The notes under the pieces were generated by a model. That model was not told the origin of the DNA and made no database searches. It was given only the letters and a program-made list of their open reading frames with translations. This document shows positions 7,615 through 23,886 of a DNA stretch of 24,000 nucleotides, one piece after another (position 1 is the stretch's first letter; each line of letters opens with the position of its first letter). The DNA is taken from positions 3,132 to 27,131 of the forward strand of contig NJEJ01000003.1 in NCBI GenBank assembly GCA_002255025.1. Direction: 5' to 3'. The DNA is from Candidatus Bathyarchaeota archaeon ex4484_135 (GTDB lineage: Archaea; Thermoproteota; Bathyarchaeia; EX4484-135). The translations under genes were made by a program, and so were the position numbers.

Positions 7615-8399
7615 CAGGACAACACCCCCTCTTCCTCCAGGGCCTTGAGGAGGTTCTCAGCTATTTCCTCAGGCGTCTCGCCCGCTATACGGACCTTTTT
7701 CCTCTCCATCGGGGGGACTATGACCTCTAGGAGGCCGTGGGCCCTCAGGGCCGATAGCTTCTCGGCCGATAGGCCCAAATCTTGGGCCCCGAGGACCTTT
7801 ATCTCCTTCTTAGCGGCCTTCATTATGGCCATGAGGCTCGGTATCCTGGGCGTGTTTATCTCTCTCGTGACCGTCACGACGACCGGGAGAGGGACGGCCA
7901 GTTCTTCATAACGGTCCTCCAGGGCCCTCTCGACCAAGAGCTCGCCGTCCCGGACCTCTATCTTCCTCACGCAGCTCACGCAGGGCACGCCCAGCAGCTC
8001 GGCCAGCTTAGGCCCGACCTGACCGGAGAAGCTATCGAGGGAGACCTCACCACATATCACTAGATCGGCCCCGCCGGCCTTCTCTATGACCTTGGCCAGG
8101 ACGGTGGTCGTCCCGAGCGTGTCAAGGTCCTTGAAGGCCTCATCGCAGGCCAGGTAGGCCTCGTCTATGCCCATGGCGAGGGCCTCCCTAAGGGCCATCT
8201 TGGCCCCCTCGGGCCCAATGGTGATGGCAAATGTCTTCCAGCCGAGCTTCTCCTTTATCTTCACGGCTTCTTCTATGGCATTCTTATCCAGGTCATTAGT
8301 CCTCATGGAAACGCCTTCTGTTATGAGCTTCCCTTCCCTATCGGCCTTCACCTGCTCCACGTCCGGTATGTACTTGACGCATACCGCTATGCTCGGCAT
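7614..8399 (-). CDS. etfB: Electron transfer flavoprotein, beta subunit
   Basis: 261 aa. Begins IAVCVKYIPD and contains DLVICG...D, as in EtfB. It lies immediately upstream of etfA and is coupled to it. Confidence 0.85.
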   Translation of the reverse strand: MPSIAVCVKYIPDVEQVKADREGKLITEGVSMRTNDLDKNAIEEAVKIKEKLGWKTFAITIGPEGAKMALREALAMGIDEAYLACDEAFKDLDTLGTTTVLAKVIEKAGGADLVICGEVSLDSFSGQVGPKLAELLGVPCVSCVRKIEVRDGELLVERALEDRYEELAVPLPVVVTVTREINTPRIPSLMAIMKAAKKEIKVLGAQDLGLSAEKLSALRAHGLLEVIVPPMERKKVRIAGETPEEIAENLLKALEEEGVLS

Positions 8400-11612: not shown

Positions 11613-11689
11613 GCTCCGGTGGTGTAGCCCGGAAGCATGGCGGCCTCTCGAGCCGCAGGTCCCGGGTTCAAATCCCGGCCGGAGCACCA
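11613..11689 (+). tRNA. tRNA-Glu (anticodon CUC), genomically encoded CCA
   Basis: Cloverleaf folded by hand. Acceptor GCTCCGG/CCGGAGC, D-arm GTGT/GCAT, anticodon stem GCGGC/GCCGC with loop CT-CTC-GA, and T-arm CCGGG-TTCAAAT-CCCGG. Discriminator A is at 11686 and CCA at 11687-11689. Confidence 0.9.
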
Positions 11690-11795
11690 ATCTCCCATCT
11701 GCCCCCACACGACCTCTCCCAATATCCTTAGTTTAAAAATGACTTTGTGACTCTCAAAAACCGGCAAAGGGCATGTGTAGCTAAAAATCGCCTCT

Positions 11796-12413
11796 TCACC
11801 TAAGCAAATGCCAGAGAGCTAAGTCCGCATAAGGCCACTCCTCAGGGGTAAACATCTGCGGTGTTAAGTTAAATTGTCGTAACCGATCCACAAATGTTTG
11901 AGGTATGCTTATTATGCTAGCTGGAGGCATAGGATAACACCAGACCCGGTGAAGTTCGCAAATGAACCAAAAGGCAGTCTGTGGCCCAAAGCCAGGGCTT
12001 CCTAGTAATTGATTATAGAAATGCGCAATGTTACTGCTTAGATTTGGATCGGGGTGCCCCCGTCTTTTAGTTAGAACCTGGTAGTTAGTTGCAATTCTAA
12101 TAGCTGATTCTAGCGCCAATCTTTCGTTACGGCCTAATGCCAGGTTCCTTATAAGGGTATTAAACGCACCTTGTTGGAGTTTCTGCTTAAGAAAGGCAAA
12201 TAATGATTGTTTTGCCTTAGCGGCTCTGAATCGTAATTCATATAGTTTCCAGTTCGCGTAATCATCTCCAAGGTTTCCCGTAGTCAGAGAAACGAATACA
12301 AGGCATTCAAATGGGGACTCCCAGGTTATTTGTTTTGCCAACACTTCACCTAAAGTTACTAGAAGCTTCTTTAACAGAGACACGGGTACGTTCACTCTAG
12401 GGACCTGCGACAT
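11796..12413 (-). CDS. Hypothetical protein in a low-GC pocket; possible degenerate helix-hairpin-helix (DNA-glycosylase-like) fold
   Basis: 205-aa ORF with no overlapping competitor. A TTTAAT box at 12440-12445 (minus strand) lies ~27-32 nt upstream of ATG 12413. GC is about 43% in a hand-counted line, against ~58-65% in flanking genes. The segment LLGSPGFGPQTAFWFICEL looks like an HhH hairpin. Family assignment is very tentative. Confidence 0.45.
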   Translation of the reverse strand: MSQVPRVNVPVSLLKKLLVTLGEVLAKQITWESPFECLVFVSLTTGNLGDDYANWKLYELRFRAAKAKQSLFAFLKQKLQQGAFNTLIRNLALGRNERLALESAIRIATNYQVLTKRRGHPDPNLSSNIAHFYNQLLGSPGFGPQTAFWFICELHRVWCYPMPPASIISIPQTFVDRLRQFNLTPQMFTPEEWPYADLALWHLLR

Positions 12414-12504
12414 TATGCATCCCTCTGAAGATTCTCCTCATTAAACGATTTTAAGCCCCATCCGCTCACAGATGGTCCCCCAGAAGATGGTTTAGCAGCC
12501 GTTT

Positions 12505-13134
12505 ATGAGCCCTGCGGCCTTAAGGCCTTCGATGAAGGAGGAGCTGGACGAGAAGGAATCGGAAATCCTAGGTATAATGTTCGGCGATGGCTCGGTCCGC
12601 CCGACCTTGAGGTCCCTCAAGATAGAGGTGTCAGGGCACAAGGTGGATGACAGAGATTACCTGCTGGGCCATGTAAGCGGCCTTTTCAGGGAGGTCTTCG
12701 GCCTCAAGATGCGGCCTTACTACAGGAGGAAGGAGAACTCCATGGTCATATATGCTTATTCTCAGCAGGTCGGGCTAGAACTTCACGAGTGGGGAATGCC
12801 CATAGGCTCTAAGGTGCGGGCCATCTTAGTCCCGAGGGTTTCCGTCAAGACCGTGCCGTTCATCAGAGGCCTCTTCGACACGGATGGCTGCATCTACAGG
12901 AAGTATGGCCCCTACGCACAGGTCCAGTTCAAGAGTGCCTCCAGGGATCTCATGAATTACGCCAGGGGGTTGTTAGTATCCTTGGGCTTCAGGCCGACTG
13001 CCGTAATCAAGGACGAGAGCCGCTTTAAGTTCTACATATGTCGTCAGGTGGAGGTCGTGAGGTTCATTAGGGTCATCAGGCCAGCTAACAAGAAGCACAT
13101 GGAGCGTTTTAAGGCCGTACTAAAGGGCTTCTGA
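12505..13134 (+). CDS. Free-standing double-motif LAGLIDADG (DOD) homing-endonuclease-family protein
   Basis: 209 aa with two LAGLIDADG-type motifs about 90 aa apart (ILGIMFGDGSV and FIRGLFDTDGCIY). It is not embedded in an intron or host protein reading frame. An alternative ATG lies at 12532. Confidence 0.75.
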   Translation: MSPAALRPSMKEELDEKESEILGIMFGDGSVRPTLRSLKIEVSGHKVDDRDYLLGHVSGLFREVFGLKMRPYYRRKENSMVIYAYSQQVGLELHEWGMPIGSKVRAILVPRVSVKTVPFIRGLFDTDGCIYRKYGPYAQVQFKSASRDLMNYARGLLVSLGFRPTAVIKDESRFKFYICRQVEVVRFIRVIRPANKKHMERFKAVLKGF

Positions 13135-13197
13135 GGAAGCCGAAATCTTAAAATACCCTCCTTTAGCTCTCAAGCCCGCAGGAGACAGTTGGGAAAG

Positions 13198-13333
13198 GGG
13201 GCCGTGGCCCAGCCAGGAAGGGCGGCGGGCTCCAGAGCACTACGGGTTCGCTCGACCCGCTCGTGCGGGGATGAAGAAGCTCTGGAGCGGAGGAACCCGT
13301 AGGTCCGGGGTTCAAATCCCCGCGGCCCCACCA
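13198..13333 (+). tRNA. tRNA-Trp (anticodon CCA) with a ~59-nt intron at the canonical 37/38 position and encoded CCA
   Basis: Folded by hand. Acceptor GGGGCCG (13198-13204) pairs with CGGCCCC (13323-13329). D-arm is GCCC/GGGC. The anticodon stem GCGGG (13225-13229) is completed only by CCCGT at 13296-13300. The loop reads CT-CCA-G then intron then A. T-arm is CGGGG-TTCAAAT-CCCCG. Discriminator A is at 13330 and CCA at 13331-13333. Confidence 0.85.
13236..13294 (+). other. tRNA-Trp intron (boundaries +/- 2 nt)
   Basis: These 59 nt must be removed to join the anticodon loop to the 3' anticodon stem strand. The intron contains GCTCTGGAGC (13279-13288), perfectly complementary to GCTCCAGAGC (13229-13238), which spans the anticodon. 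It also has an internal hairpin at 13237-13266. Confidence 0.7.
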
Positions 13334-13365
13334 GGTCCGGGGTTCAAATCCCCGCGGCCCCACCA
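13302..13365 (+). repeat. Perfect tandem duplication (2 x 32 nt) of the tRNA-Trp 3' end (part of the variable loop, T-arm, 3' acceptor strand, discriminator, CCA)
   Basis: GGTCCGGGGTTCAAATCCCCGCGGCCCCACCA occurs at 13302-13333 and again, identical and directly abutting, at 13334-13365. Confidence 0.95.
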
Positions 13366-14319: not shown

Positions 14320-15498
14320 ATGGGAGAACTCCTCATGACGCCTGGGCCAGTCATGCTCTCCTCAAGGGTCATAAGGGCCCTCTCTAGGCAGGCCTGTAGC
14401 CACGTGAGCCAGGAGTTCGCGGAGGCTCTGTCCGAGACGAGAGATATGCTGAAGGAGGTCTTCAGGACGTCTCATGACGTCGTCATAGCCCCTGGCTCGA
14501 GCTCGCTGGGCCTCGAAATGGCCATAGCGAACTCCGTGAGGCCCGGTGATAAAGTCATAGTGGTCTCCTCGGGCTACTTCTCGGACAGGATCGCCGAGGT
14601 AGTCAGGCGGCACAGGGGCATCCCGGTCTTAGTGGGCGGGGACCCGAGGAAGGGCGTAAGCGTCGAGGCCGTTGAAGAGGTCCGCGACAAGCACCCGGAT
14701 GCCGTGGCCCTGTGCGTCGTGCACGTGGAGACCTCGACGGGCGTGGTCAACTCGGTCGAGCGTATAGGCCGCCTGGCCCGGGAGGAAGGCCTGTTGCACA
14801 TAGTAGATGCGGTCTCATCCGTGGGAGGCATGGATGTCAGGACGGACGAATGGGGCATAGATTACTGCGTGGCCGGTCCTCAAAAGGCCCTCGCGGCCCC
14901 ACCTGGCCTGGCCCTCTTATCCGTGAGCCAGGAGGCACTTGATATGGCCAACTCCAGGCCTGAGGACCCGTTCACCTTCTACATGGACGTCAGGGGGTGG
15001 GTCAGGGCCATGAGGGACCCGTTCAAGCGTTACGTGACGCACGCGGTCCACCTGGTGTTCGCCCTGAAGGAGGCCTTGAGTGTAGTCCTTGAGGAGGGGC
15101 TGGAGAGGCGTTTCGAGAGGCATCGCCTCTTAGCTGAGGCCGTGCGGAGGGGCGTCAGGGCCTTAGGGCTCAAGCTGTTCCCTGAAGAAGGCCACGAAGC
15201 TGATACGCTCACGGCCATAGAAATGCCGGAGGGCATATCGAGCAGGGTGGTGGCCGAGCTGATGCTAGAGCGTGGCGTCAGGGTGGCACCTGGCTGGGGC
15301 GAATACGCTGAGCGTGTGTTGAGGATAGGGCACATGGGCAACATAGGAGCCGAGCACGTCCTAAGGACTCTCTCCTGCCTCGAGTCAGCCCTATCTGAGC
15401 TAGGCTTTGAGGCTGAGGGAGCCGTAAAGGAAGCTTCATCTTACCTCTCGGGATTCGACCAAGAGATATTGAAGCCGCCGGATGAGATACCGTGCTGA
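14320..15498 (+). CDS. Class V pyridoxal-phosphate aminotransferase (serine-pyruvate/alanine-glyoxylate aminotransferase-like)
   Basis: N-terminus LLMTPGPV, the HVETSTGV block and the PLP-lysine context GPQKAL are typical of AGXT/SGAT-type enzymes. The ORF opens at 14266 (alternative start overlapping the TauE stop). ATG 14320 is preferred. Confidence 0.85.
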   Translation: MGELLMTPGPVMLSSRVIRALSRQACSHVSQEFAEALSETRDMLKEVFRTSHDVVIAPGSSSLGLEMAIANSVRPGDKVIVVSSGYFSDRIAEVVRRHRGIPVLVGGDPRKGVSVEAVEEVRDKHPDAVALCVVHVETSTGVVNSVERIGRLAREEGLLHIVDAVSSVGGMDVRTDEWGIDYCVAGPQKALAAPPGLALLSVSQEALDMANSRPEDPFTFYMDVRGWVRAMRDPFKRYVTHAVHLVFALKEALSVVLEEGLERRFERHRLLAEAVRRGVRALGLKLFPEEGHEADTLTAIEMPEGISSRVVAELMLERGVRVAPGWGEYAERVLRIGHMGNIGAEHVLRTLSCLESALSELGFEAEGAVKEASSYLSGFDQEILKPPDEIPC

Positions 15499-16415
15499 GG
15501 GGATATGCTTTGGTCGAAAAAGAAGTCCTCCGTTCTAAGTTCGTGGGCAGCCTCCTCGGGACGGCGGTAGGCGATTCCCTAGGAGCCGGTAGATGGCTCA
15601 GGTCTGCTGGCCGTGAGCTATCGCCTTTCTACACGGACGACACCCACATGACCATAGGCGTGGCTGAATCGCTGGTGGATAAGAAGGGCTTCGATAAGGA
15701 CCACATGCTCGAGACCCTCGTGAGGAACTGGGAGCGTGAGCCTTGGAGGGGCTACGGCCCTGGCCCGCCCAGGATATTCGCGGCCTACAGGCGTGGCGAG
15801 GACCCATATGAGGTCGCGAGGAACCTCTACCCTGGCGGCTCCTACGGGAACGGAGCTGCCATGAGGGTCGCCCCAATAGCCTGCTTCTACTATGATGACT
15901 TAGACAGGTTAAAGGAGGTCGTTTATGAGGCGAGCAGCATAACACATGCCCATCCGCTTGGGAAGGAAGGGGCCTTCCTGCAGGCCTCGGCCATAGCCCT
16001 GGCCGTAAGGACCGAGCCGGGCCATCTGGACCCGTTTGATTTCGTTGAACAGCTCAGGGCCCTGATGGAGCATGACGTATATGTGAGGAAGCTAAATATC
16101 ATAAGGCGTTTCCTGAGTTCACGACCAACTAAATCCCAAGTCATAAGGGAGCTGGGGAACTCGGTTGAGGCCTTCAACTCGGTCCCGACAGCCATATACG
16201 CCTTCCTGGCTCACGACCAATTCGAATCAGCTCTTAGGTACGCGGTCAGCTTAGGAGGTGATTCGGACACGATAAGTGCTATGACGGGGGCCATAGCTGG
16301 TGCTTATCACGGCCGGGAGGCCATACCGGACCGTTGGCTGGCCGAATTGGAGAACAAAGATTACATAGAACATTTGGCTGTGAGGTTATGGAAGATTAAG
16401 GTAAAATGTCTTTAG
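15492..16415 (+). CDS. ADP-ribosylglycohydrolase (ARH/DraG) family protein
   Basis: 307 aa. Family motifs GSLLGTAVGDSLG, TDDTHMT, GNGAAMRVAP and GGDSDTISAMTGAIAGAYHG. The GTG start overlaps the aminotransferase stop by 7 nt. Confidence 0.85.
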   Translation: MLRGYALVEKEVLRSKFVGSLLGTAVGDSLGAGRWLRSAGRELSPFYTDDTHMTIGVAESLVDKKGFDKDHMLETLVRNWEREPWRGYGPGPPRIFAAYRRGEDPYEVARNLYPGGSYGNGAAMRVAPIACFYYDDLDRLKEVVYEASSITHAHPLGKEGAFLQASAIALAVRTEPGHLDPFDFVEQLRALMEHDVYVRKLNIIRRFLSSRPTKSQVIRELGNSVEAFNSVPTAIYAFLAHDQFESALRYAVSLGGDSDTISAMTGAIAGAYHGREAIPDRWLAELENKDYIEHLAVRLWKIKVKCL

Positions 16416-16430
16416 GCCTGGGAGGGGCCG

Positions 16431-17690
16431 TCAGGTAAGCCCTTCTTGGGTCAGTATCTCCCGCACTATGGATCTCTGGACGGCGAGCCTTATCTTCTTC
16501 GTCCTGCCGTACCGGCCCATGTTGACCAACTGGGCGTTCAACAGCCCCATCATATCTAGCTCGTTTATGATGCTGCTTATCCTCCTCTGCGTCAGAGGCG
16601 TCAGCCCCATCCGGCTGCAGATGGCCGAGTAGGCAGCGTATATCTCGCCAGTTATGACTGAGCTGACCTTCTTAGTCTTCTCGTAGACGGCCAGGAGGAT
16701 TAGCTTGGCGTGGAGCGGGAGGCTCCTGATGGCCTCCACGATCCGGTCATATTCTATGCATTTGACGGCCTTCCTTACGTGTTCTACCTCGACCTTGCGG
16801 GCTCCCTCACGCTCGGCTATCTCCCCTGCCACACGGAGCAGGTCCAGTGCTCTACGGGCATCGCCATGCTCCTGGGCCGAGAGAGCTGCACAGAGCCCAA
16901 TCACGGCTTCTGAAACGGCCCCATCAACGAAGGCTTCCCGGGCCCGGTCCCACAATATGTCCCTGAGCTGGGAGGCGTTGTAGGGCTTGAAGACCATTTC
17001 TTCCTCGCTGAGAGAGCTCAGGACCCTTGGATCTAGATGTTCCTTGAATGTGAGGTCGTTTGAGATACCTATTAGACATATCTTGGAGCCCTTCAGCTCT
17101 GGATTCAGGCGTGTCAGCTCGTACAACAAGGCATCGCCATGTGCCTTCACGAGTACGTCAACTTCATCGAGCATTATTATGAAGACGAACTCACGACCAA
17201 TCAAGGCCTTCTTGAAACGCTCTAGGACTTCTGCCTTCGCAAGGCCCGTGAAAGGCACCTTGACGCCCAGGGCCTCGCACAGGGAGGCCAGGATGCGGTA
17301 CTCCGTCCCGGCCATGCGGCAGTTGATGTAGCAGGCCACGACCGGTGCTCCTATCTGCCTTGCCTTGGCCGTGAGTTTGTCGAGCACGTACCTGGCAACT
17401 GCTGTCTTGCCAGTGCCGGTCTTACCGTATATGAAGACGTTAGAGCACTTCTGGCCCTTTAGGGCTGGTGCTAGTATGGATGCCAGAGTCCTGATTTCTT
17501 CCTCACGGTGCGGTAGCTTCTCCGGGACGTAATCGTGCCTTAGGACATCCCTGTTCTTGAATATAGTGTTCCCCTTCAAGAATTGGTCGAAAACCTCATC
17601 AACAGGGGACCTTACCTCAGGCTCGAGATCCTCGACACCCGCACCCCCCTGTTTCCACTGGAGAACCTGCGGCAATACTGAAACATCCAT
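16431..17690 (-). CDS. cdc6: Orc1/Cdc6 replication initiator
   Basis: AAA+ Walker A GKTGTGKT and Walker B IIMLDEVD. N-terminal IFKNRDVLRHDYVPEKLPHREEE and a C-terminal winged helix. The longest ORF reaches 17816, but ATG 17690 (MDVSVL...) gives a normal length. The start remains uncertain because an ORB element lies at 17636-17665. Confidence 0.9.
   Translation of the reverse strand: MDVSVLPQVLQWKQGGAGVEDLEPEVRSPVDEVFDQFLKGNTIFKNRDVLRHDYVPEKLPHREEEIRTLASILAPALKGQKCSNVFIYGKTGTGKTAVARYVLDKLTAKARQIGAPVVACYINCRMAGTEYRILASLCEALGVKVPFTGLAKAEVLERFKKALIGREFVFIIMLDEVDVLVKAHGDALLYELTRLNPELKGSKICLIGISNDLTFKEHLDPRVLSSLSEEEMVFKPYNASQLRDILWDRAREAFVDGAVSEAVIGLCAALSAQEHGDARRALDLLRVAGEIAEREGARKVEVEHVRKAVKCIEYDRIVEAIRSLPLHAKLILLAVYEKTKKVSSVITGEIYAAYSAICSRMGLTPLTQRRISSIINELDMMGLLNAQLVNMGRYGRTKKIRLAVQRSIVREILTQEGLT
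17636..17665 (-). promoter_or_regulatory. Origin recognition box ORB-A
   Basis: The minus strand reads TCTCCAGTGGAAACAGGGGGGTGCGGGTGT. This is the TCCAGTGGAAA dyad core plus a downstream G-string (GGGGT), as in described archaeal ORB elements. Confidence 0.7.
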
Positions 17691-17837
17691 GGTTCCTTGG
17701 TTTTTGAACAAGGAACAGTCCCCTCCCTGCGTGCTAGGCTGCATGCCAGAGTTCTTAAGCAGTTTTGTCGAGTTTTCTCGACTACCAGCCGACCATATGA
17801 CGCAGTTCTTCTCCACCTAAGCTCTGATGACTATGGC

Positions 17838-17849
17838 TTGGTCGAATGG
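17838..17849 (+). repeat. TTGGTCGAATGG motif copy (function unknown)
   Basis: This 12-mer is identical to 18076-18087. It abuts ORB-B and is intergenic. Confidence 0.9.
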
Positions 17850-17850
17850 T

Positions 17851-17881
17851 CCTCCAGTGGAAGCCGAGGGGTAGAGGGGGG
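17851..17881 (+). promoter_or_regulatory. Origin recognition box ORB-B
   Basis: CCTCCAGTGGAAGCCGAGGGGTAGAGGGGGG. It has the same core CTCCAGTGGAA (17852-17862) and GGGGT (17868-17872). Confidence 0.75.
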
Positions 17882-17952
17882 CACGTACCGGCTTTAAGCG
17901 TGCATGTTGAGGAGGCAGGTCCTATTGTGAACCTGTTTTTAATCGGGTGTGG

Positions 17953-17986
17953 GATCCCCCCAACCCCTTCCCTTCCACTGGAGGAG
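17953..17986 (-). promoter_or_regulatory. Origin recognition box ORB-C
   Basis: The minus strand reads CCTCCTCCAGTGGAAGGGAAGGGGTTGGGGGGAT. It is inverted relative to ORB-B, with the G-strings of the two boxes facing each other across ~70 bp. Confidence 0.75.
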
Positions 17987-18075
17987 GTCAATTCACTATT
18001 CGGCTGAGCTGATATTGGGGCCCTTGACTTCATGGTGAAGCCTGTGAAGACCAAAACACTGGAAAAATAAGTCCT

Positions 18076-18087
18076 TTGGTCGAATGG
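18076..18087 (+). repeat. TTGGTCGAATGG motif copy (function unknown)
   Basis: This 12-mer is identical to 17838-17849. It is intergenic, ~90 nt upstream of the wHTH ORF. Confidence 0.9.
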
Positions 18088-18175
18088 CCTTCTTTTCCAA
18101 GGCTCTAACTTCACAACCTTCACAGAAAGCCTTTAGAGCTTGTGAACCTGTCGAAGTAGTGAAGGGGCCGGCCCC

Positions 18176-18589
18176 ATGCCGCCTAGGAAACTCAGGATAG
18201 AGGTCTACGACTGGGAAGGTACCAAGTACGTCTTGAGCGTGGAGGGCAGGCTCACGAGGGAGAAGATAGCCTTCCTCCTAGAGATGGTAGAGAGGATGGG
18301 TGCCGTGCCCGAGGAGGAACTGGTCCTCAGGCCTCTCCCAGCCGAGATGACGCTTTACGAGAAGCTACAGCTCGTCATAGAGCGTTACTTCTCGGGCACT
18401 TGGTTCACGACCAGGGACGTGAAGGAAGCATATGAACAGGAATTCGGTGAGCCCATAAAGCTCAGCACTGTCTCGACCTACCTGGCTAGGATGGCCGAGA
18501 GAGGCATGCTCGTGAGGGCTGGCCCAGCTTCGGCCAGACGTTATAGGCTCAGGGCTGAGGTAGCCCGGCCTCTACCTGGCCCGTACTGA
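18176..18589 (+). CDS. Small origin-adjacent protein with a C-terminal winged helix-turn-helix domain
   Basis: 137 aa. The C-terminal half FTTRDVKEAYEQEFGEPIKLSTVSTYLARMAERGMLVRAGPASARRYRL fits a wHTH pattern (helix, recognition helix, beta wing). The N-terminal ~70 aa is not recognisable. Coding-like composition, with no strong competing ORF. Confidence 0.55.
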   Translation: MPPRKLRIEVYDWEGTKYVLSVEGRLTREKIAFLLEMVERMGAVPEEELVLRPLPAEMTLYEKLQLVIERYFSGTWFTTRDVKEAYEQEFGEPIKLSTVSTYLARMAERGMLVRAGPASARRYRLRAEVARPLPGPY

Positions 18590-18609
18590 AAGGACCTCAG
18601 AGGACATGT

Positions 18610-18625
18610 GAATTGGTCGAATACC
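18610..18625 (+). repeat. GAATTGGTCGAATACC motif copy (function unknown)
   Basis: Intergenic, 21 nt after the wHTH ORF stop. It is 15/16 identical to GAATTGGTCGAAAACC at 17580-17595. Confidence 0.9.
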
Positions 18626-18691
18626 CCATAACTAAGGCCTCCTAGGCCCCCTATATAGGCTCGGGCTCACGACCAATTACCTTCTGGCAGC

Positions 18692-18699
18692 TATTATAA
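18692..18699 (+). promoter_or_regulatory. TATA box (TATTATAA) of gcvPA
   Basis: Lies 28-35 nt upstream of the in-frame GTG at 18727 and only 16-23 nt upstream of the TTG at 18715. This favours 18727 as a near-leaderless start. Confidence 0.45.
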
Positions 18700-18726
18700 G
18701 CCCGAGATAGCCGTTTGTGGTGCAGG

Positions 18727-20124
18727 GTGCTCAGGTTGACGCCAGCACACCCCTACATACCTAACTCGGCCGAGAGCTCCAAACGCAAGCTCGTGGATTT
18801 CCTAGGCATATCAGACCCAGAGGAACTCTACTCGGATGTGCCCGAGGTCGTGAAACTGGATAGGCCCCTTGAGGTCCTGGGCCCACTGCCCGAGCAAGAA
18901 ATACTCAAGCGTATCAAGGAGAAGCTATCAAGCGTTAAAACGGCTTTAGACATGCCTGTTTTCCTAGGGGCAGGTTGTTGGCCCCATTACGTCCCGGCCG
19001 TGGTGGATTTCATATTAGCTCGGACGGAGTTCTACACGTCTTACACGCCCTACCAGCCGGAGATAAGCCAGGGGATGCTCCAGGCCCTCTGGGAATACCA
19101 GAGCATGGTATGTGAACTCACGGGCATGGAGGTAACTAACTGCTCCATGTACGATTGGGCTTCTGCCCTCGGGGAGGCAGCCCGCATGGCCGTCCGGATA
19201 ACGGGCCGAAAACGCGTGCTCGTCCCGAAGATAATACACCCTGAGAGGCTCGAGGTCCTCAAGGCCTACACGGAGCCAGCGGGCATAACGGTCGAGCAGG
19301 TCCCCTACGAGCCCGAGACAGGCCAGATGGACTTAGAGGCCCTCAAGGCCAGGATGGGCTCAGATGTGGCAGCTGTCTACGTGGAGAACCCGTCATACCT
19401 GGGATTCATAGAGACGCGTGTGAAGGCCATAGGGGAGATAGCTCACGACCGAGGTGCCCTATACGTGGTCGGCGTTGACCCGATATCGCTCGGCATCCTC
19501 GAGGCACCAGGCAACTACGGGGCTGACATAGTGGTCGGGGAAGGGCAACCGCTCGGGAACCACATGAACTTCGGCGGCCCCCTCTTGGGCATACTGGCCT
19601 GTAGGGCCGAGAGGCGTTTCATATGGCAGATGCCTGGCCGCATAATAGGCCTGACGGTCGATTCCGAGGGCAGGAAGGCCTTCTGCATGGCTTTACAGGC
19701 CAGGGAGCAGCACATAAGGCGTGAGAGAGCCTCCAGCAACATATGCACGAACGAAGCCCTCTGTGCCGTGGCAGCTGCGGTCTACCTAGCCCTCCTGGGC
19801 CCAAAGGGCCTGAGGGAGCTCTGCGAGACCATAATCTACAGGTCCCATTATGCCATGAAACGCTTGAACGAGCTCCCGGGCGTAAAGGCCCCGTTGTTCA
19901 AGGCCCCCCACTTCAAGGAGTTCGTGGTCAACTACAACGGCACCGGCCTCACGGCCAAAGCCATCCACGAGGGCCTCTTAAAGGCCGGCATCCACGGCGG
20001 CAAGCTCTTAGCGGGCGAGTTCCCAGAGCTAGGCCAATCGGCCCTATACTGCATCACAGAGCTCCACACAAAGGAGGACATAGATCGGTTGGCCGAGGCC
20101 CTAAGGGGTCTTTTGGAGAGGTGA
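18727..20124 (+). CDS. gcvPA: Glycine dehydrogenase (decarboxylating) subunit 1 (P-protein alpha)
   Basis: Begins ...HPYIPNS, with blocks FLGAGCWPHYVP, YTPYQPEISQG and NICTNEALCA typical of GcvPA. The ORF opens at TTG 18715, so the start could be 18715, 18727 or 18736. Confidence 0.9.
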   Translation: MLRLTPAHPYIPNSAESSKRKLVDFLGISDPEELYSDVPEVVKLDRPLEVLGPLPEQEILKRIKEKLSSVKTALDMPVFLGAGCWPHYVPAVVDFILARTEFYTSYTPYQPEISQGMLQALWEYQSMVCELTGMEVTNCSMYDWASALGEAARMAVRITGRKRVLVPKIIHPERLEVLKAYTEPAGITVEQVPYEPETGQMDLEALKARMGSDVAAVYVENPSYLGFIETRVKAIGEIAHDRGALYVVGVDPISLGILEAPGNYGADIVVGEGQPLGNHMNFGGPLLGILACRAERRFIWQMPGRIIGLTVDSEGRKAFCMALQAREQHIRRERASSNICTNEALCAVAAAVYLALLGPKGLRELCETIIYRSHYAMKRLNELPGVKAPLFKAPHFKEFVVNYNGTGLTAKAIHEGLLKAGIHGGKLLAGEFPELGQSALYCITELHTKEDIDRLAEALRGLLER

Positions 20125-21675
20125 TTGGTCGTGAGCCAGCCATCATTTAGACAGGCGAGGTGGGACGAACCCATAATCTTCGAGCTAGGGGCACCCGGGC
20201 GGAGGGGCCACATACCGCCGAGGCCCGAGCCAGAGGTCGTGGAAGCCGTCGGGCCCATAGAGGACCTGCTGCCCGAGGAGCTTGTCCGCAAGGAACCGCC
20301 CCGGTTGCCCGAGATGTCCGAGCCAGAAGTCGTGAGGCACTTCGTGAGGCTATCACAGATGAACTACTGCCCCGACGTAGGCCTCTACCCGCTCGGGAGC
20401 TGCACCATGAAGTACAACCCGAAGATATGCGACCTCGTGGCCAGCACGGACCAAGTAAGGTGGGCCCACCCTTATCAGGACGAGAGGACCGTCCAGGGCC
20501 TACTGGCCATCCTATATGAGCTGAAGAAGTGGTTGGCCGAGATAACGGGCACACACGAGGTCTCCCTCCTGCCAGCGGCCGGTGCCCACGGTGAGTTCCT
20601 GGGCTGCCTCATCATAAGGGCCTACCACAAGCGTAAGGGCCAGCTAGTCGAGAGGCGGGAGATGATAGTGCCTGATAGTGCTCACGGCACCAACCCAGCT
20701 AGTGCGGCCATGGCCGGCTTCAAGGTCATAACAATCCCCTCCGGCCCAGACGGCTGTGTTGACGTAGAGGCCCTGAAGGCAGCCGTCTCGAAGAGGACAG
20801 CTGGCCTTATGCTGACGAACCCGAACACCCTCGGCATCTTCGAGTCCAAGATAAAAGAGATAGCGGAGATAATACACGATGCAGGCGGCCTCCTATATTA
20901 CGATGGAGCCAACTTGAACGCCATATTGGGCAAGTCGAGGCCGGGCGATATGGGCTTCGATATAGTGCACATAAACATCCATAAGACCTTCGGGACCCCA
21001 CATGGCGGTGGGGGGCCTGGCTCAGGCCCGATAGGCGTCGTGGAAGAGCTAGAGCCCTTCCTGCCCGTCCCCAGGATAGAATACGATGGCGAACGCTACT
21101 GCCTGAACTGGGATAAGCCGCTGGCGGTGGCAAAGATAAGGGCCTTCTTGGGCAACGTGGCCGTCCTAGTGAGGGCCTACGCCTACATCTTGGCCCTGGG
21201 CCCCGAGGGCCTTAAGGAGGCGGCGGAGGTATCCGTCCTGAACTCCAACTACCTGCTGAAGAAGTTGGCATCCTTGGAGGGCATAGAGGTCCCCTACGGG
21301 CCAGACAGGCCCAGGAAGCACGAGTTCGTGGTAAGCCTCAAGCCCCTAGAGCGTTCCACGGGCGTCAGAGCCTTGAACGTGGCCAAGAGGCTGCTTGACC
21401 ACGGCTACCACGCACCAACCATATACTTCCCACCCATAGTAGATGAGGCCTTCATGGTAGAGCCGACTGAGTCCTTCGGCGTAGAGGACCTAGATGGCTT
21501 CGCAGAGGCCATGCGGGCCATATTAGAAGAGGCTCGAGCGGAGCCCGAGAAGGTCCTTAAGGCCCCTTACAACACGGCCGTCGGCCGCGTGGACGAGGTA
21601 AGGGCATCGCACCCGAAGACCATGGTCCTGAGCTGGCGTATGCTGAAGGAGAGGGAAGGTTTATCAAGGGCGTAG
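20125..21675 (+). CDS. gcvPB: Glycine dehydrogenase (decarboxylating) subunit 2 (P-protein beta)
   Basis: 516 aa. Blocks YPLGSCTMKYNP, PDSAHGTNPASA and the PLP-lysine context NIHKTFGTPHGGGGPG. The TTG start directly abuts the gcvPA stop. Confidence 0.9.
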   Translation: MVVSQPSFRQARWDEPIIFELGAPGRRGHIPPRPEPEVVEAVGPIEDLLPEELVRKEPPRLPEMSEPEVVRHFVRLSQMNYCPDVGLYPLGSCTMKYNPKICDLVASTDQVRWAHPYQDERTVQGLLAILYELKKWLAEITGTHEVSLLPAAGAHGEFLGCLIIRAYHKRKGQLVERREMIVPDSAHGTNPASAAMAGFKVITIPSGPDGCVDVEALKAAVSKRTAGLMLTNPNTLGIFESKIKEIAEIIHDAGGLLYYDGANLNAILGKSRPGDMGFDIVHINIHKTFGTPHGGGGPGSGPIGVVEELEPFLPVPRIEYDGERYCLNWDKPLAVAKIRAFLGNVAVLVRAYAYILALGPEGLKEAAEVSVLNSNYLLKKLASLEGIEVPYGPDRPRKHEFVVSLKPLERSTGVRALNVAKRLLDHGYHAPTIYFPPIVDEAFMVEPTESFGVEDLDGFAEAMRAILEEARAEPEKVLKAPYNTAVGRVDEVRASHPKTMVLSWRMLKEREGLSRA

Positions 21676-22737: not shown

Positions 22738-23886
22738 TTGAAGGCCGATGTGGCCGTGATAGGTGCTGGCCCAGCCGGTTCATCAGCTACGGCTGTCTTG
22801 GCCCGCGAGGGCTTTGACGTCGTCTTATTGGAAGAACACGCTAGGCCTGGCGTACCGCAGCACTGTGCTGGCATGTTGACGAAGGAGGCCTGCCGTAGGT
22901 TGGGCATAAGGGTCCCGAGAGGAGTTGTTCAATCCGAGCCAAGTCATGTGGTTATCCATTACGGCTCTACGTCCTTTAAGGCTAGGTTAGATATGTATGT
23001 ATTGGATAGGGCTTCATTCGACCAGTACATGGCCGAAACAGCCGTAGAAGCCGGTGCTGAACTCCTAACAGGCCATAAGGTGATTGGGATGCGTAGGTCC
23101 GGCCATGGCTGGCTTTTGAGCGTGAGAGGCGGTCCTGAGCTGGCATCTGAACTCGTTATAGGTGCTGATGGCTATAAGGCCCTTAGCCTTAGATGGGCTG
23201 GCCTTGAAAGGCCATCGGAAGTTGCTTCCTGCCTCCAGTACGAGCTTAAGCTAGATCGTGAGGTTGACCAGGACATAGTGGTCTGCTACTTCGGTTCCTC
23301 GGTAGCCCCGGGAGGATATGCTTGGGTGGTCCCAATAGGCAATAAAGCTGTCAGGGTGGGGTTGGGTGTCAGGAAGGCCTCAAAACCAGCCCGTTTTTAC
23401 TTAGATGCCTTCGTAAAGAAAGAGTTCCCGAACTCTAAGATAGTGAAGCGGATGGCGGGCCTTGTCTCGACAAGCGGTCCCGTAGTCCCGAATTACACGG
23501 GAGCCTACCTGGCAGTTGGGGAAGCAGCTGGCCACGTAAACCCGCTGACAGGTGCCGGCATAGCTTCCTCCATGGTCTCTGGTCGAATAGCCGGCCTCAT
23601 AGCCTCGAGGGCCTTGGAAGAAGGGGACTTCTCGGCCCTAAGGCTATCGGAACATTACACCACTTGGAGGTCCGTAGTAGGTCGTTATCACGAACTGGCC
23701 ATGGAAGTCCGTAGGGCCCTCGAGTCCCTGACGAGCGAGGAACTCGCCTGCTTGGTCAAAGACATGTCGCGAGGAAGTAGCAAAAGCCGGCTTTCCCTCA
23801 CGGCCTTAAGTCTGTTGGCGAGGAATCCCAAGTTCGTCAAGTTCTTGCTCAAGGTGAGGGAGCTTAAGGTAGCCTTATGCCTCTGA
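22738..23886 (+). CDS. FAD-dependent oxidoreductase, geranylgeranyl reductase family
   Basis: 382 aa. N-terminal dinucleotide fold DVAVIGAGPAGSSATAVLAREGFDVVLLEE, plus the blocks GADG, YAWVVP and GEAAGHVNPLTGAGI typical of GGR/FixC-like flavoproteins. TTG start. Confidence 0.75.
   Translation: MKADVAVIGAGPAGSSATAVLAREGFDVVLLEEHARPGVPQHCAGMLTKEACRRLGIRVPRGVVQSEPSHVVIHYGSTSFKARLDMYVLDRASFDQYMAETAVEAGAELLTGHKVIGMRRSGHGWLLSVRGGPELASELVIGADGYKALSLRWAGLERPSEVASCLQYELKLDREVDQDIVVCYFGSSVAPGGYAWVVPIGNKAVRVGLGVRKASKPARFYLDAFVKKEFPNSKIVKRMAGLVSTSGPVVPNYTGAYLAVGEAAGHVNPLTGAGIASSMVSGRIAGLIASRALEEGDFSALRLSEHYTTWRSVVGRYHELAMEVRRALESLTSEELACLVKDMSRGSSKSRLSLTALSLLARNPKFVKFLLKVRELKVALCL

Follow-up and report, generated by a model that had tools for sequence, protein, structure and literature searches.

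What maintains a short DNA word that recurs around a predicted replication origin, within genes as well as between them, and what might read it there? The question is raised by a 24 kb stretch of the genome of the thermophilic Bathyarchaeia archaeon 'ex4484_135' (hereinafter the window), which carries an orc1/cdc6 initiator gene (16431..17708, minus strand) and three origin recognition boxes (ORBs). ORB1 (17852..17862, plus strand; CTCCAGTGGAA followed by GGGGT) is taken as the centre of the predicted origin, while ORB2 (17973..17983) and ORB3 (17653..17663), both on the minus strand, combine CTCCAGTGGAA with a G-run. Around these boxes we find an asymmetric 10-11 bp motif, TGGYCGYGAG(C), which is enriched in an origin-centred gradient, takes a distinct flavour in each lineage and is under purifying selection at the nucleotide level. 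The agreement between enrichment, gradient, purifying selection, conservation across reading frames, operator-like palindromes and concerted flavours leads us to infer that the motif is a protein-binding site. We propose, at about even confidence and on comparative sequence evidence, that the array consists of half-sites for a putative reader protein that would mark an origin domain. All the evidence is computational and comes from metagenome contigs, in which the motif-bearing sequence covered reaches ~18 kb from the origin.

The word was first recognized as the heptamer TTGGTCG (or its complement CGACCAA), for which the first-pass annotation of the window had reported 13 copies, more than expected, with 11 of them clustered between 15.45 and 20.14 kb. 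Our recount returns the same 13, where dinucleotide shuffles average 1.74 and never exceed 7 and Markov models of orders 0 to 4 predict 3.1, 2.0, 2.1, 2.8 and 4.0 copies, respectively; the word is the top-enriched 7-mer of the window at orders 3 and 4. A Markov test of maximal order is uninformative on 24 kb because the sub-words are themselves enriched. The 11 clustered copies fall within 15456-20131 (4676 bp; scan statistic under uniform placement, P = 3e-5). Since the best 7-mer at any comparable 15-21 kb locus has a P of ~1e-4 to 2e-6, the raw count alone is not exceptional; the finding counts as real because of the clustering, the identities extending over 12-14 nucleotides and the replication in relatives. 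These longer identities were also correctly placed in the earlier reading: TTGGTCGAAT at 15453 (minus strand), 17838, 18076 and 18613; the 12-mer common to 17838 and 18076, which is TTGGTCGAATGG; GAATTGGTCGAA(A/T)ACC (17580 and 18610), whose two copies agree in 15 of 16 bases; the second-subfamily copies at 16208-16222, 17190, 18664-18678 and, inverted, 20124; their weaker relatives at 16119, 18404 and 19441; and, to the right of the cluster, an inverted pair of CTGGTCGAAT at 23016 (minus) and 23579 (plus). Furthermore, ATTGGTCGTGAG occurs four times in the window (16210, 17190, 18666 and 20124) and ATTGGTCGTGAGCC three times, the sole 14-mer there with as many occurrences.

Comparison with relatives changes the definition of the word itself. 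Syntenic loci, retrieved by searches with Orc1 and with a small open reading frame (ORF) predicted to encode a winged helix-turn-helix (wHTH) protein (18176..18589, plus strand), comprise five lineages delimited by DNA identity: lineage A (the window, L074 and L040, with the more distant L060 set apart as A2 at ~80% DNA identity), lineage B (L001, L035, L084 and L087), lineage C (L003 and L080), lineage C' (L039, L079 and L088) and lineage D (L002, L037, L036, L049, L038 and L082). More distant loci from low-GC Bathyarchaeia and from Nitrososphaera were also retrieved. Against this background, the copies listed for the window resolve into one asymmetric motif, T-GG-Y-CG-Y-GAG(C), of which TTGGTCG is merely one lineage's version. 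Taking TTGGTCG as the core had meant missing the C variants at 15208, 15608, 17365 and 19948, which the revised core TGGYCGYGAG recovers. Likewise, the two subfamilies recognized earlier contain genuine copies but are both flavours of this one motif, as lineage B has CGA copies at the sites orthologous to the window AAT copies (17838 and 18076).

Each lineage shows a preferred version of the motif: TTGGTCG followed by TGAG or AAT in lineage A, TGGCCG[CT]GAG and TTGGTCGCGA in lineage B (where TTGGTCG is itself among the three most enriched 7-mers, with GCCGCGA and CGGCCAA), TGGYCGTGAG in lineage C and TGGCCGCGAG in lineage C'. At orthologous sites C' always has CGCGA, C and A have CGTGA, and B has both. 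Such a concerted flavour is the expected product of a single trans-acting reader. The variable positions are restricted to two cytosines, namely C4 of GGCC and the C of CGCG, which alternate between C and T both within and between lineages; this could result from relaxed specificity or from deamination of a modified cytosine. In a de novo word search near the origin, pieces of the motif are the top 8-9-mers in lineages A, B, C and C', with P of 1e-10 to 1e-25, whereas the best words of control loci reach only ~1e-5. The same search within ~3 kb of the origin in lineage D returns ORB and GTGAA words only, and among the retrieved loci the motif is absent from lineage D and from the more distant relatives. 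TGCTCG was considered as a replacement motif in lineage D and rejected as a coding effect, for it derives from sense-strand V/M-L-D/E codons.

The distribution of the motif was gauged by how the density of TGGYCGYGA, in lineages A, B, C and C' taken together and relative to a Markov-3 expectation, changes with distance from ORB1. It is 3.04 per kb at 0-3 kb (72 copies in 23.7 kb; 35x expectation), 0.88 per kb at 3-6 kb (10x), 0.66 per kb at 6-10 kb (7.5x) and 0.36 per kb at 10-20 kb (4x), while in lineage D the sequence up to 3 kb from ORB1 is free of copies. The peak is centred on ORB1 in all four lineages despite differing outer neighbours, which on the orc1 side are aminotransferase and TauE genes in lineage A versus the Nuo/Mrp complex in B, C and C', and on the gcvP side a GFO, PheRS or ABC transporter gene depending on the lineage. 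The gradient reaches unrelated genes, among them those of the Nuo/Mrp complex in L088 and, in L084, the gene for the PheRS beta-subunit and an adjacent unnamed ORF. The first-pass annotation had made its case depend on a positional bias and allowed for a genome-wide word. A bias towards the origin exists, with the peak lying within 3 kb of ORB1 in four lineages, although a ~4-10x excess extends to 18 kb in some; the window lineage is at background density beyond 3 kb (1 copy in the 7.9 kb lying more than 10 kb from ORB1), which goes against a genome-wide word, but the wider excess makes a weak broader baseline possible. A strand polarity flipping at the origin, as in elements of the KOPS, Chi or ASPS type, is not seen: TGGYCGYGA copies in the window lie on strands -,+,-,-,-,+ to the left of ORB1 and -,-,-,+ to its right. 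Leading-strand polarity was also discarded as not reproducible, the mild bias of exact TTGGTCG copies being reversed in L001.

Most copies lie in protein-coding genes, and the strand and frame of each show that the coding sequence does not generate them. As had been noted at the outset, no shared peptide can explain the intragenic copies, which use sense and antisense strands and all frames and encode peptides as different as LTAI/LTAK, AGRE/IGRE, SRP, AHDQ/VFDQ/GFDQ, LVEK and FTTR. This frame and strand table, together with codon shuffles, rules out a shared peptide or codon bias as the cause of the words. In these shuffles, synonymous codons of the near-origin genes were permuted 400 times with the proteins kept: in the window, 6 copies of TTGGTCG compare with 0.9 expected and 8 of TGGYCGYGA with 1.0, while for TGGYCGYGAG the figures are 14 against 0.7 in L001 and 8 against 0.3 in L003, and the observed counts were reached by none of the 400 shuffles. 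Distal genes show a smaller excess (3 against 0.3). Strain comparisons point the same way: between the window and L074, 8.0% of the 5477 bases of the region differ, but only 1 of 140 motif bases does, a 12-fold deficit of substitutions inside the motif; between the window and L040, 1 of 60 motif bases differs, and this change is a C/T swap at a Y position that keeps the motif.

The word can also persist while the protein around it changes. At the start of gcvPB, TTGGYCGTGAGCC reads L-V-V-S-Q-P-S in the window versus M-L-G-R-E-P-G in L001, with a 4-nt indel bringing both back into the same frame ahead of FRQARWDEP. Lineage D has other residues at the orthologous codons and no motif there, e.g. 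LLTK in orc1 versus LTAK in A, B and C'. The motif is held by purifying selection on the DNA itself, including within genes, and such selection can reshape the codons, and even the amino acids, of origin-adjacent housekeeping genes. Some sites are common to several lineages and many are lineage-specific; this turnover with kept density suggests, from the sequence comparison, selection for density as well as for individual sites.

The copies between genes show a characteristic architecture. In lineages B, C and C' a palindrome, TCRCGRCCA-N5-7-TGGYCGYGA, directly follows the stop codon of the small ORF, and is in turn followed by inverted-pair units consisting of TGGYCGYGAG, 19-27 nt of AT-rich, TATA-like sequence and CTCRCGRCCA. 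The palindrome is perfect in L084 and L001; L080 combines it with four inverted-pair units, and L079 has two units. In the window, a single unit with a longer spacer, TTGGTCGAAT ... CTCACGACCAA (18613..18676), corresponds to these arrays; it is located between the small ORF and gcvPA, and its centre is AT-rich/TATA-like. In every case the gcvPA TATA box follows the last arm at a distance of ~20-25 nt (~20 nt from the right arm in the window). At the origin proper, lineages B and C have CTCACGRCCA directly against the G-run of ORB1, a copy that is decayed in the window; on the opposite side of ORB1, lineages A and B have TTGGTCG at a distance of 8-12 nt. The inverted half-sites flanking the gcvPA TATA-like boxes are what the operator of a dimeric transcription factor would display, albeit in a minority of copies only, and the intergenic inverted pairs, alone among the copies, can fold as hairpins (z = -2.9 to -3.7), most copies being without a partner. 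REP/BIME-like units, which are intergenic only and always hairpin-forming, do not fit an element whose copies are mostly single and intragenic; nor do plasmid-type iterons (17-22 bp co-oriented tandem repeats in the origin core), as the copies here are 10-11 bp long and spread over both strands of ~6 kb. Tandem Repeats Finder reports no array, and an Rfam search of 15000-20600 has no match at E up to 1, including to the glycine riboswitch.

Within the window, the cluster begins with a copy of TGGCCGTGAG (15208..15217, minus), antisense in the class-V aminotransferase gene and unchanged in the 8%-diverged L074. At the 3' end of the same gene, TTGGTCGAAT (15453..15462, minus) forms a divergent pair with TTGGTCGAAA (15510..15519, plus) at the start of the ADP-ribosylglycohydrolase (ARH) gene, where the TTG of the latter copy is the start codon implied by the gene length in L074 (301 aa versus a 307-aa ORF). 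ARH further contains TGGCCGTGAG (15608..15617, plus), at a position conserved in A, A2, B and C, and two antisense copies on the minus strand, TTGGTCGTGAA (16118..16128) and AATTGGTCGTGAGCC (16208..16222), the latter conserved in L060. Three copies lie in orc1: TTGGTCGTGAG (17190..17200, minus), which is in sense orientation, encodes IGRE and is replaced by TGGCCG in L040 and L030 and by TGGCCGCGA in lineage B; TTGGCCGTGAG (17365..17375, plus), antisense and conserved in A, B and C'; and TTGGTCGAAA (17583..17592, plus), antisense in the 5' part. Of the two copies of TTGGTCGAATGG on the plus strand, that at 17838..17849 is 8 nt from ORB1 (12 nt in lineage B) and has TTGGCCG in L030 and L031, while that at 18076..18087 is 100 nt upstream of the small ORF, with CTTTGGTCG invariant there across the window, its strains and lineage B. 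The small ORF contains CTGGTCGTGAA (18404..18414, minus) in antisense. Beyond the inverted pair, gcvPA bears an antisense TTGGCCGTGAG (19948..19958, minus), whose position is conserved in A, B, C and C', each in its own flavour, and ATTGGTCGTGAGCC (20124..20137, plus) covers the gcvPA stop and gcvPB start, being conserved in lineage B in a different frame. A secondary hot spot (22751..23588) occupies a geranylgeranyl-reductase-like gene, with TGGCCGTGA at 22751 (plus), TGGCCGAAA at 23030 (plus) and the CTGGTCGAAT pair mentioned above; the gene has five copies in L079 (C') and four in L080 (C). As a separate matter, GGCC-containing words are over-represented throughout the window (GAAGGCC, 52 versus 7 expected; CACGGCC, 33 versus 4; GGCCCTGAGG, 9 copies), a compositional signature of the whole sequence, due to which simple k-mer statistics are inflated.

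The proposed reader would be a trans-acting, sequence-specific, double-strand DNA-binding protein that recognizes TGGYCGYGAG(C), for which the copies would mostly be single half-sites, and it is most likely encoded outside the window; Pfam scans of 21 window ORFs recognize no ParA/SegA, ParB or methyltransferase gene. Its strong sites would be the palindromes and inverted pairs on either side of ORB1 and between the small ORF and gcvPA, supplemented by dozens of isolated half-sites in the flanking genes (ARH, orc1, gcvPA and the gcvPB start), so that all sites together would sustain a domain of ~6 kb, coated with protein and having the origin at its centre. Such a domain would most likely serve to organize or control the origin region, in the manner of ParB/parS, SegB sites or the Thermococcales mini-ORB cluster, be it as a centromere-like or compaction nucleation zone or by controlling initiation and the flanking promoters. 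A more specific version, which we put forward only tentatively and with distinctly less confidence than the general proposal, is that A, B, C and C' have a dedicated reader, which D lacks or has replaced, and that this protein nucleates at palindromic sites beside ORB1 and spreads or bridges over ~6 kb to tether, compact, segregate or time the origin. Orc1/Cdc6, one of the binders suggested in the first-pass annotation, is not indicated in its classical binding mode, for the motif has no likeness to ORBs, and the ORBs are unchanged in lineage D.

Several observations weigh against an origin-marking function. The origin is itself a prediction from ORBs and orc1. The sister lineage D lacks the motif although its origin, orc1 and small ORF are the same, and the array is thus dispensable for origin function as such. 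Lineage C' retains a 4-8x excess at 10-18 kb from the origin, up to the outer limit of the sequence covered. Moreover, the profile is uneven, with the body of gcvPB almost empty and ARH very dense (5-9 copies), and 4-5 kb away, in lineages A, C and C', the reductase-like gene forms a secondary hot spot that retains its copies where a GFO gene is inserted in front of it. Due to this unevenness and the hot spot, gene-linked regulation fits as well as origin organization.

The main rival is accordingly a local transcription factor: the motif would be the operator of a regulator of the glycine/serine cluster (the aminotransferase, ARH, gcvPA/gcvPB and the reductase-like gene), and its proximity to the origin would follow from synteny with orc1. 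The palindromes and inverted pairs flanking the TATA-like boxes upstream of gcvPA, the fixed distance of the last site from the gcvPA TATA box, the copies located at the gcvPB and ARH start codons and close to the start of the reductase-like gene, and the fidelity of the latter gene to its copies even when displaced by an insertion all speak for such a regulator. Nevertheless, most copies lie deep in genes and on both strands, which, with the crowding in ARH alone, is unusual for an operator; others flank ORB1 or occur inside orc1; the gradient continues into the unrelated genes named above; and lineage D possesses the same gene cluster without the motif. We consider it unlikely that this account suffices, though the operator and origin readings could both be true.

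Quite improbable, in our estimate, is that the motif is the target of a lineage-specific DNA methyltransferase with a reader, a mark comparable to GATC and SeqA at E. coli oriC in that it would help to sequester or time the origin. That variation is restricted to C/T at two cytosines matches in direction what deamination of methylated cytosines should leave in a thermophile, and the clustering at the origin would suit this reading, but a contiguous, asymmetric site of 10-11 bp is long for a methyltransferase target, the window has no such gene, and the T variants are themselves conserved, which marks them as functional copies rather than decay products. Even less credence attaches to the inverted pairs acting as structural hairpins, either cruciforms or transcribed stem-loops, e.g. 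in a gcvPA leader, instead of protein sites: despite their folding scores and the fact that both arms are always in the lineage's own flavour, amounting to covariation, their loops are conserved in neither length nor sequence, the Rfam search found neither a riboswitch nor anything else, and the single copies on both gene strands, with no partner within reach, fall outside its scope. That the words arise by composition or chance, i.e. from a GGCC-rich oligonucleotide bias, codon pairs or post hoc choice of the word, can be given next to no weight. The window-wide excess of GGCC words, the P of ~1e-5 reached by the best 7-mer of similar loci and the single transition that separates TGGCCG from TGGTCG lend it a starting point; yet the motif is replicated independently in three further lineages at P of 1e-10 to 1e-25, its local peak stands out from flanking sequence on the same contigs, the codon shuffles, the substitution deficit and the conservation across reading frames contradict it, and lineage D, of similar GC (0.64), has zero copies near its origin.

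The neighbouring small ORF merits attention in its own right, as it may, judging from its conservation and position, encode a conserved origin-associated factor. Its product of ~137 aa, identical to a hypothetical protein of 'Candidatus Bathyarchaeota archaeon ex4484_135', has an N-terminal beta-hairpin and helix followed by a C-terminal winged helix that is modelled confidently (pLDDT, the per-residue confidence of the model, >90 for residues 60-125). Structural matches are generic (RosR, ArsR, Fur and PadR; E 6e-3 or weaker), and Pfam matches are below threshold only, with no Pfam or NCBIfam family assigned. It has 106 homologues, nearly all annotated 'hypothetical', and the gene is divergent from orc1 in nearly all retrieved Bathyarchaeia with at least 57% Orc1 identity, as well as in Nitrososphaera loci (homologue loci L004-L016, L022-L024, L041-L053, L063-L065 and L078-L084). 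This protein had been suggested as a binder of the motif, but it is disfavoured as the reader, because its recognition helix, LSTVSTYLAR, is invariant from the window lineage to Nitrososphaerota, including the motif-less lineage D, and because a different word family accompanies its gene.

That second family occurs at 17927-17937, 18033-18050, 18110-18127 and 18143-18170, in the origin and the promoter of the small ORF, and has equivalents in all related loci. In GC-rich lineages its forms are GTGAA(C/G)(C)TGT and TTCACAACCTTCACAG; low-GC Bathyarchaeia have TGTGAAGT..TGTTAA, CTGTTAAC is also found outside the GC-rich lineages, and Nitrososphaera has about eight copies of (C)TGTTAAC. The small ORF invariably has one copy between its TATA box and its start codon, which makes the family a candidate operator for the encoded protein. 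As this GTGAAS/GTTAA family surrounds the promoter in every lineage examined, it is the better candidate target for the small wHTH protein. Kinship with TGGYCGYGAG via the common GTGA was ruled out by the exclusive use of CGCGAG in lineage C'. The ~65-70 nt upstream of the small ORF (18096-18160), containing TTCACAACCTTCACAG and a putative TATA box, CCTTTAGAG, are ~100% identical between the window and lineage B, as against 71% for the surrounding region. On the other side of the origin, between the TATA-like CTTAAG of orc1 and ORB3, a palindrome, GGTTCCTTG-N9-CAAGGAAC, followed by CCCCTCCCTGCG (17691-17716), is conserved in A, B, C, C' and D; its variable loop includes an indel, due to which the stretch is probably non-coding and the annotated orc1 start uncertain.

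A few further features of these loci were observed. At 13301-13365 the window contains two tandem copies of a 32-nt tRNA 3' end (GGTCCGGGGTTCAAATCCCCGCGGCCCCACCA), called tRNA-Leu(CAA) by ARAGORN, with no convincing tRNA body upstream. Between them and tRNA-Glu (11613-11689) lies a low-GC island of ~1.6 kb (47-49% GC) with an unknown ORF and a LAGLIDADG ORF (12505-13134), and the whole region (11613-13365) resembles a scar left by integration or else a tRNA that was split or duplicated. In lineage D, L082 has a Fic-domain gene (7756-8241) inserted between orc1 and ARH, which lineages A, B and C lack. In lineage C, two ORFs without a Pfam match occupy the gcvPB position of L080 (3335-4859) and may represent a disrupted or replaced gcvPB; the origin of this locus contains a run of N at 943-952.

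To our knowledge, archaeal origins have been described in terms of ORBs and an AT-rich unwinding element, with little known on origin-organizing sequences beyond the mini-ORB cluster and SegB sites, and our literature search found no report of such elements for Bathyarchaeia. A precisely defined, selected motif, with natural lineages both with and without it, makes the marking of the origin neighbourhood testable in this phylum. Among known systems, the motif departs from ORBs and mini-ORBs, whose core consists of 'TTCC' and 'GAA' dyad motifs (PMC1904270): TGGYCGYGAG lacks the dyad TTCCA-N-TGGAA, often joined to a G-run, and the three canonical CTCCAGTGGAA boxes are separate from it. A second, non-ORB class of site directly beside an ORB is nonetheless familiar from S. 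solfataricus oriC2, where an mORB for Orc1-1 adjoins C3 sites for Orc1-3 (PMC3089459); unlike the motif, the C3 sites (GAAACGTAGGAAATTTAC) are confined to the origin core and unrelated in sequence, and no second orc1 paralogue is seen in the window. As with bacterial parS/ParB, DnaA-box and GATC clusters, there is an origin-proximal concentration of a word that is tolerated inside genes and would nucleate a nucleoprotein domain. However, parS is a 16-bp palindrome present in few copies (TGTTNCACGTGAAACA; no window match at up to 3 mismatches), DnaA-box and GATC clusters cover a few hundred bp as opposed to ~6 kb, and the host here is an archaeon with an Orc1-type initiator.

The closest parallels are archaeal. 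In Pyrococcus, a 5 kb zone is bound by Cdc6/Orc1, and an intragenic cluster of mini-ORBs in dp1 forms part of it (PMC1904270). Like that Thermococcales cluster, the array comprises short repeated words inside coding sequence by the origin in an arrangement conserved between species, with isolated copies elsewhere and a bound or marked zone of several kb around orc1. In contrast to it, the motif coexists with three canonical ORBs, spans several genes on both sides and has a putative reader in place of the proven Cdc6/Orc1, the Thermococcales repeats being versions of the ORB. The SegB sites of Sulfolobales, 13-bp palindromes of the form TCTAGA-S-TCTAGA, are clustered and 83% intragenic (PMC12284271). 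The motif resembles them in being archaeal, mostly intragenic, concentrated in one chromosomal neighbourhood with scattered copies beyond it, and strongest in an intergenic promoter region. It differs in sequence and in that its single unit is not palindromic, while the SegB cluster is centred on segAB rather than on ORBs; the window has two matches to the SegB site (core AGA-s-TCT) at 3 mismatches versus 5.95 expected, none of them in the cluster, and no ParA/SegA-type ATPase of a segAB operon was detected in the Pfam scans of 21 window ORFs. Hence, we liken the array to mini-ORB and SegB arrays in its presumed mode of action without claiming membership in either family; should the more specific version of the proposal hold, the array and its reader would constitute an independently arisen functional analogue of ParB/parS or SegB in Bathyarchaeia, and with it a previously unknown archaeal origin-domain system.

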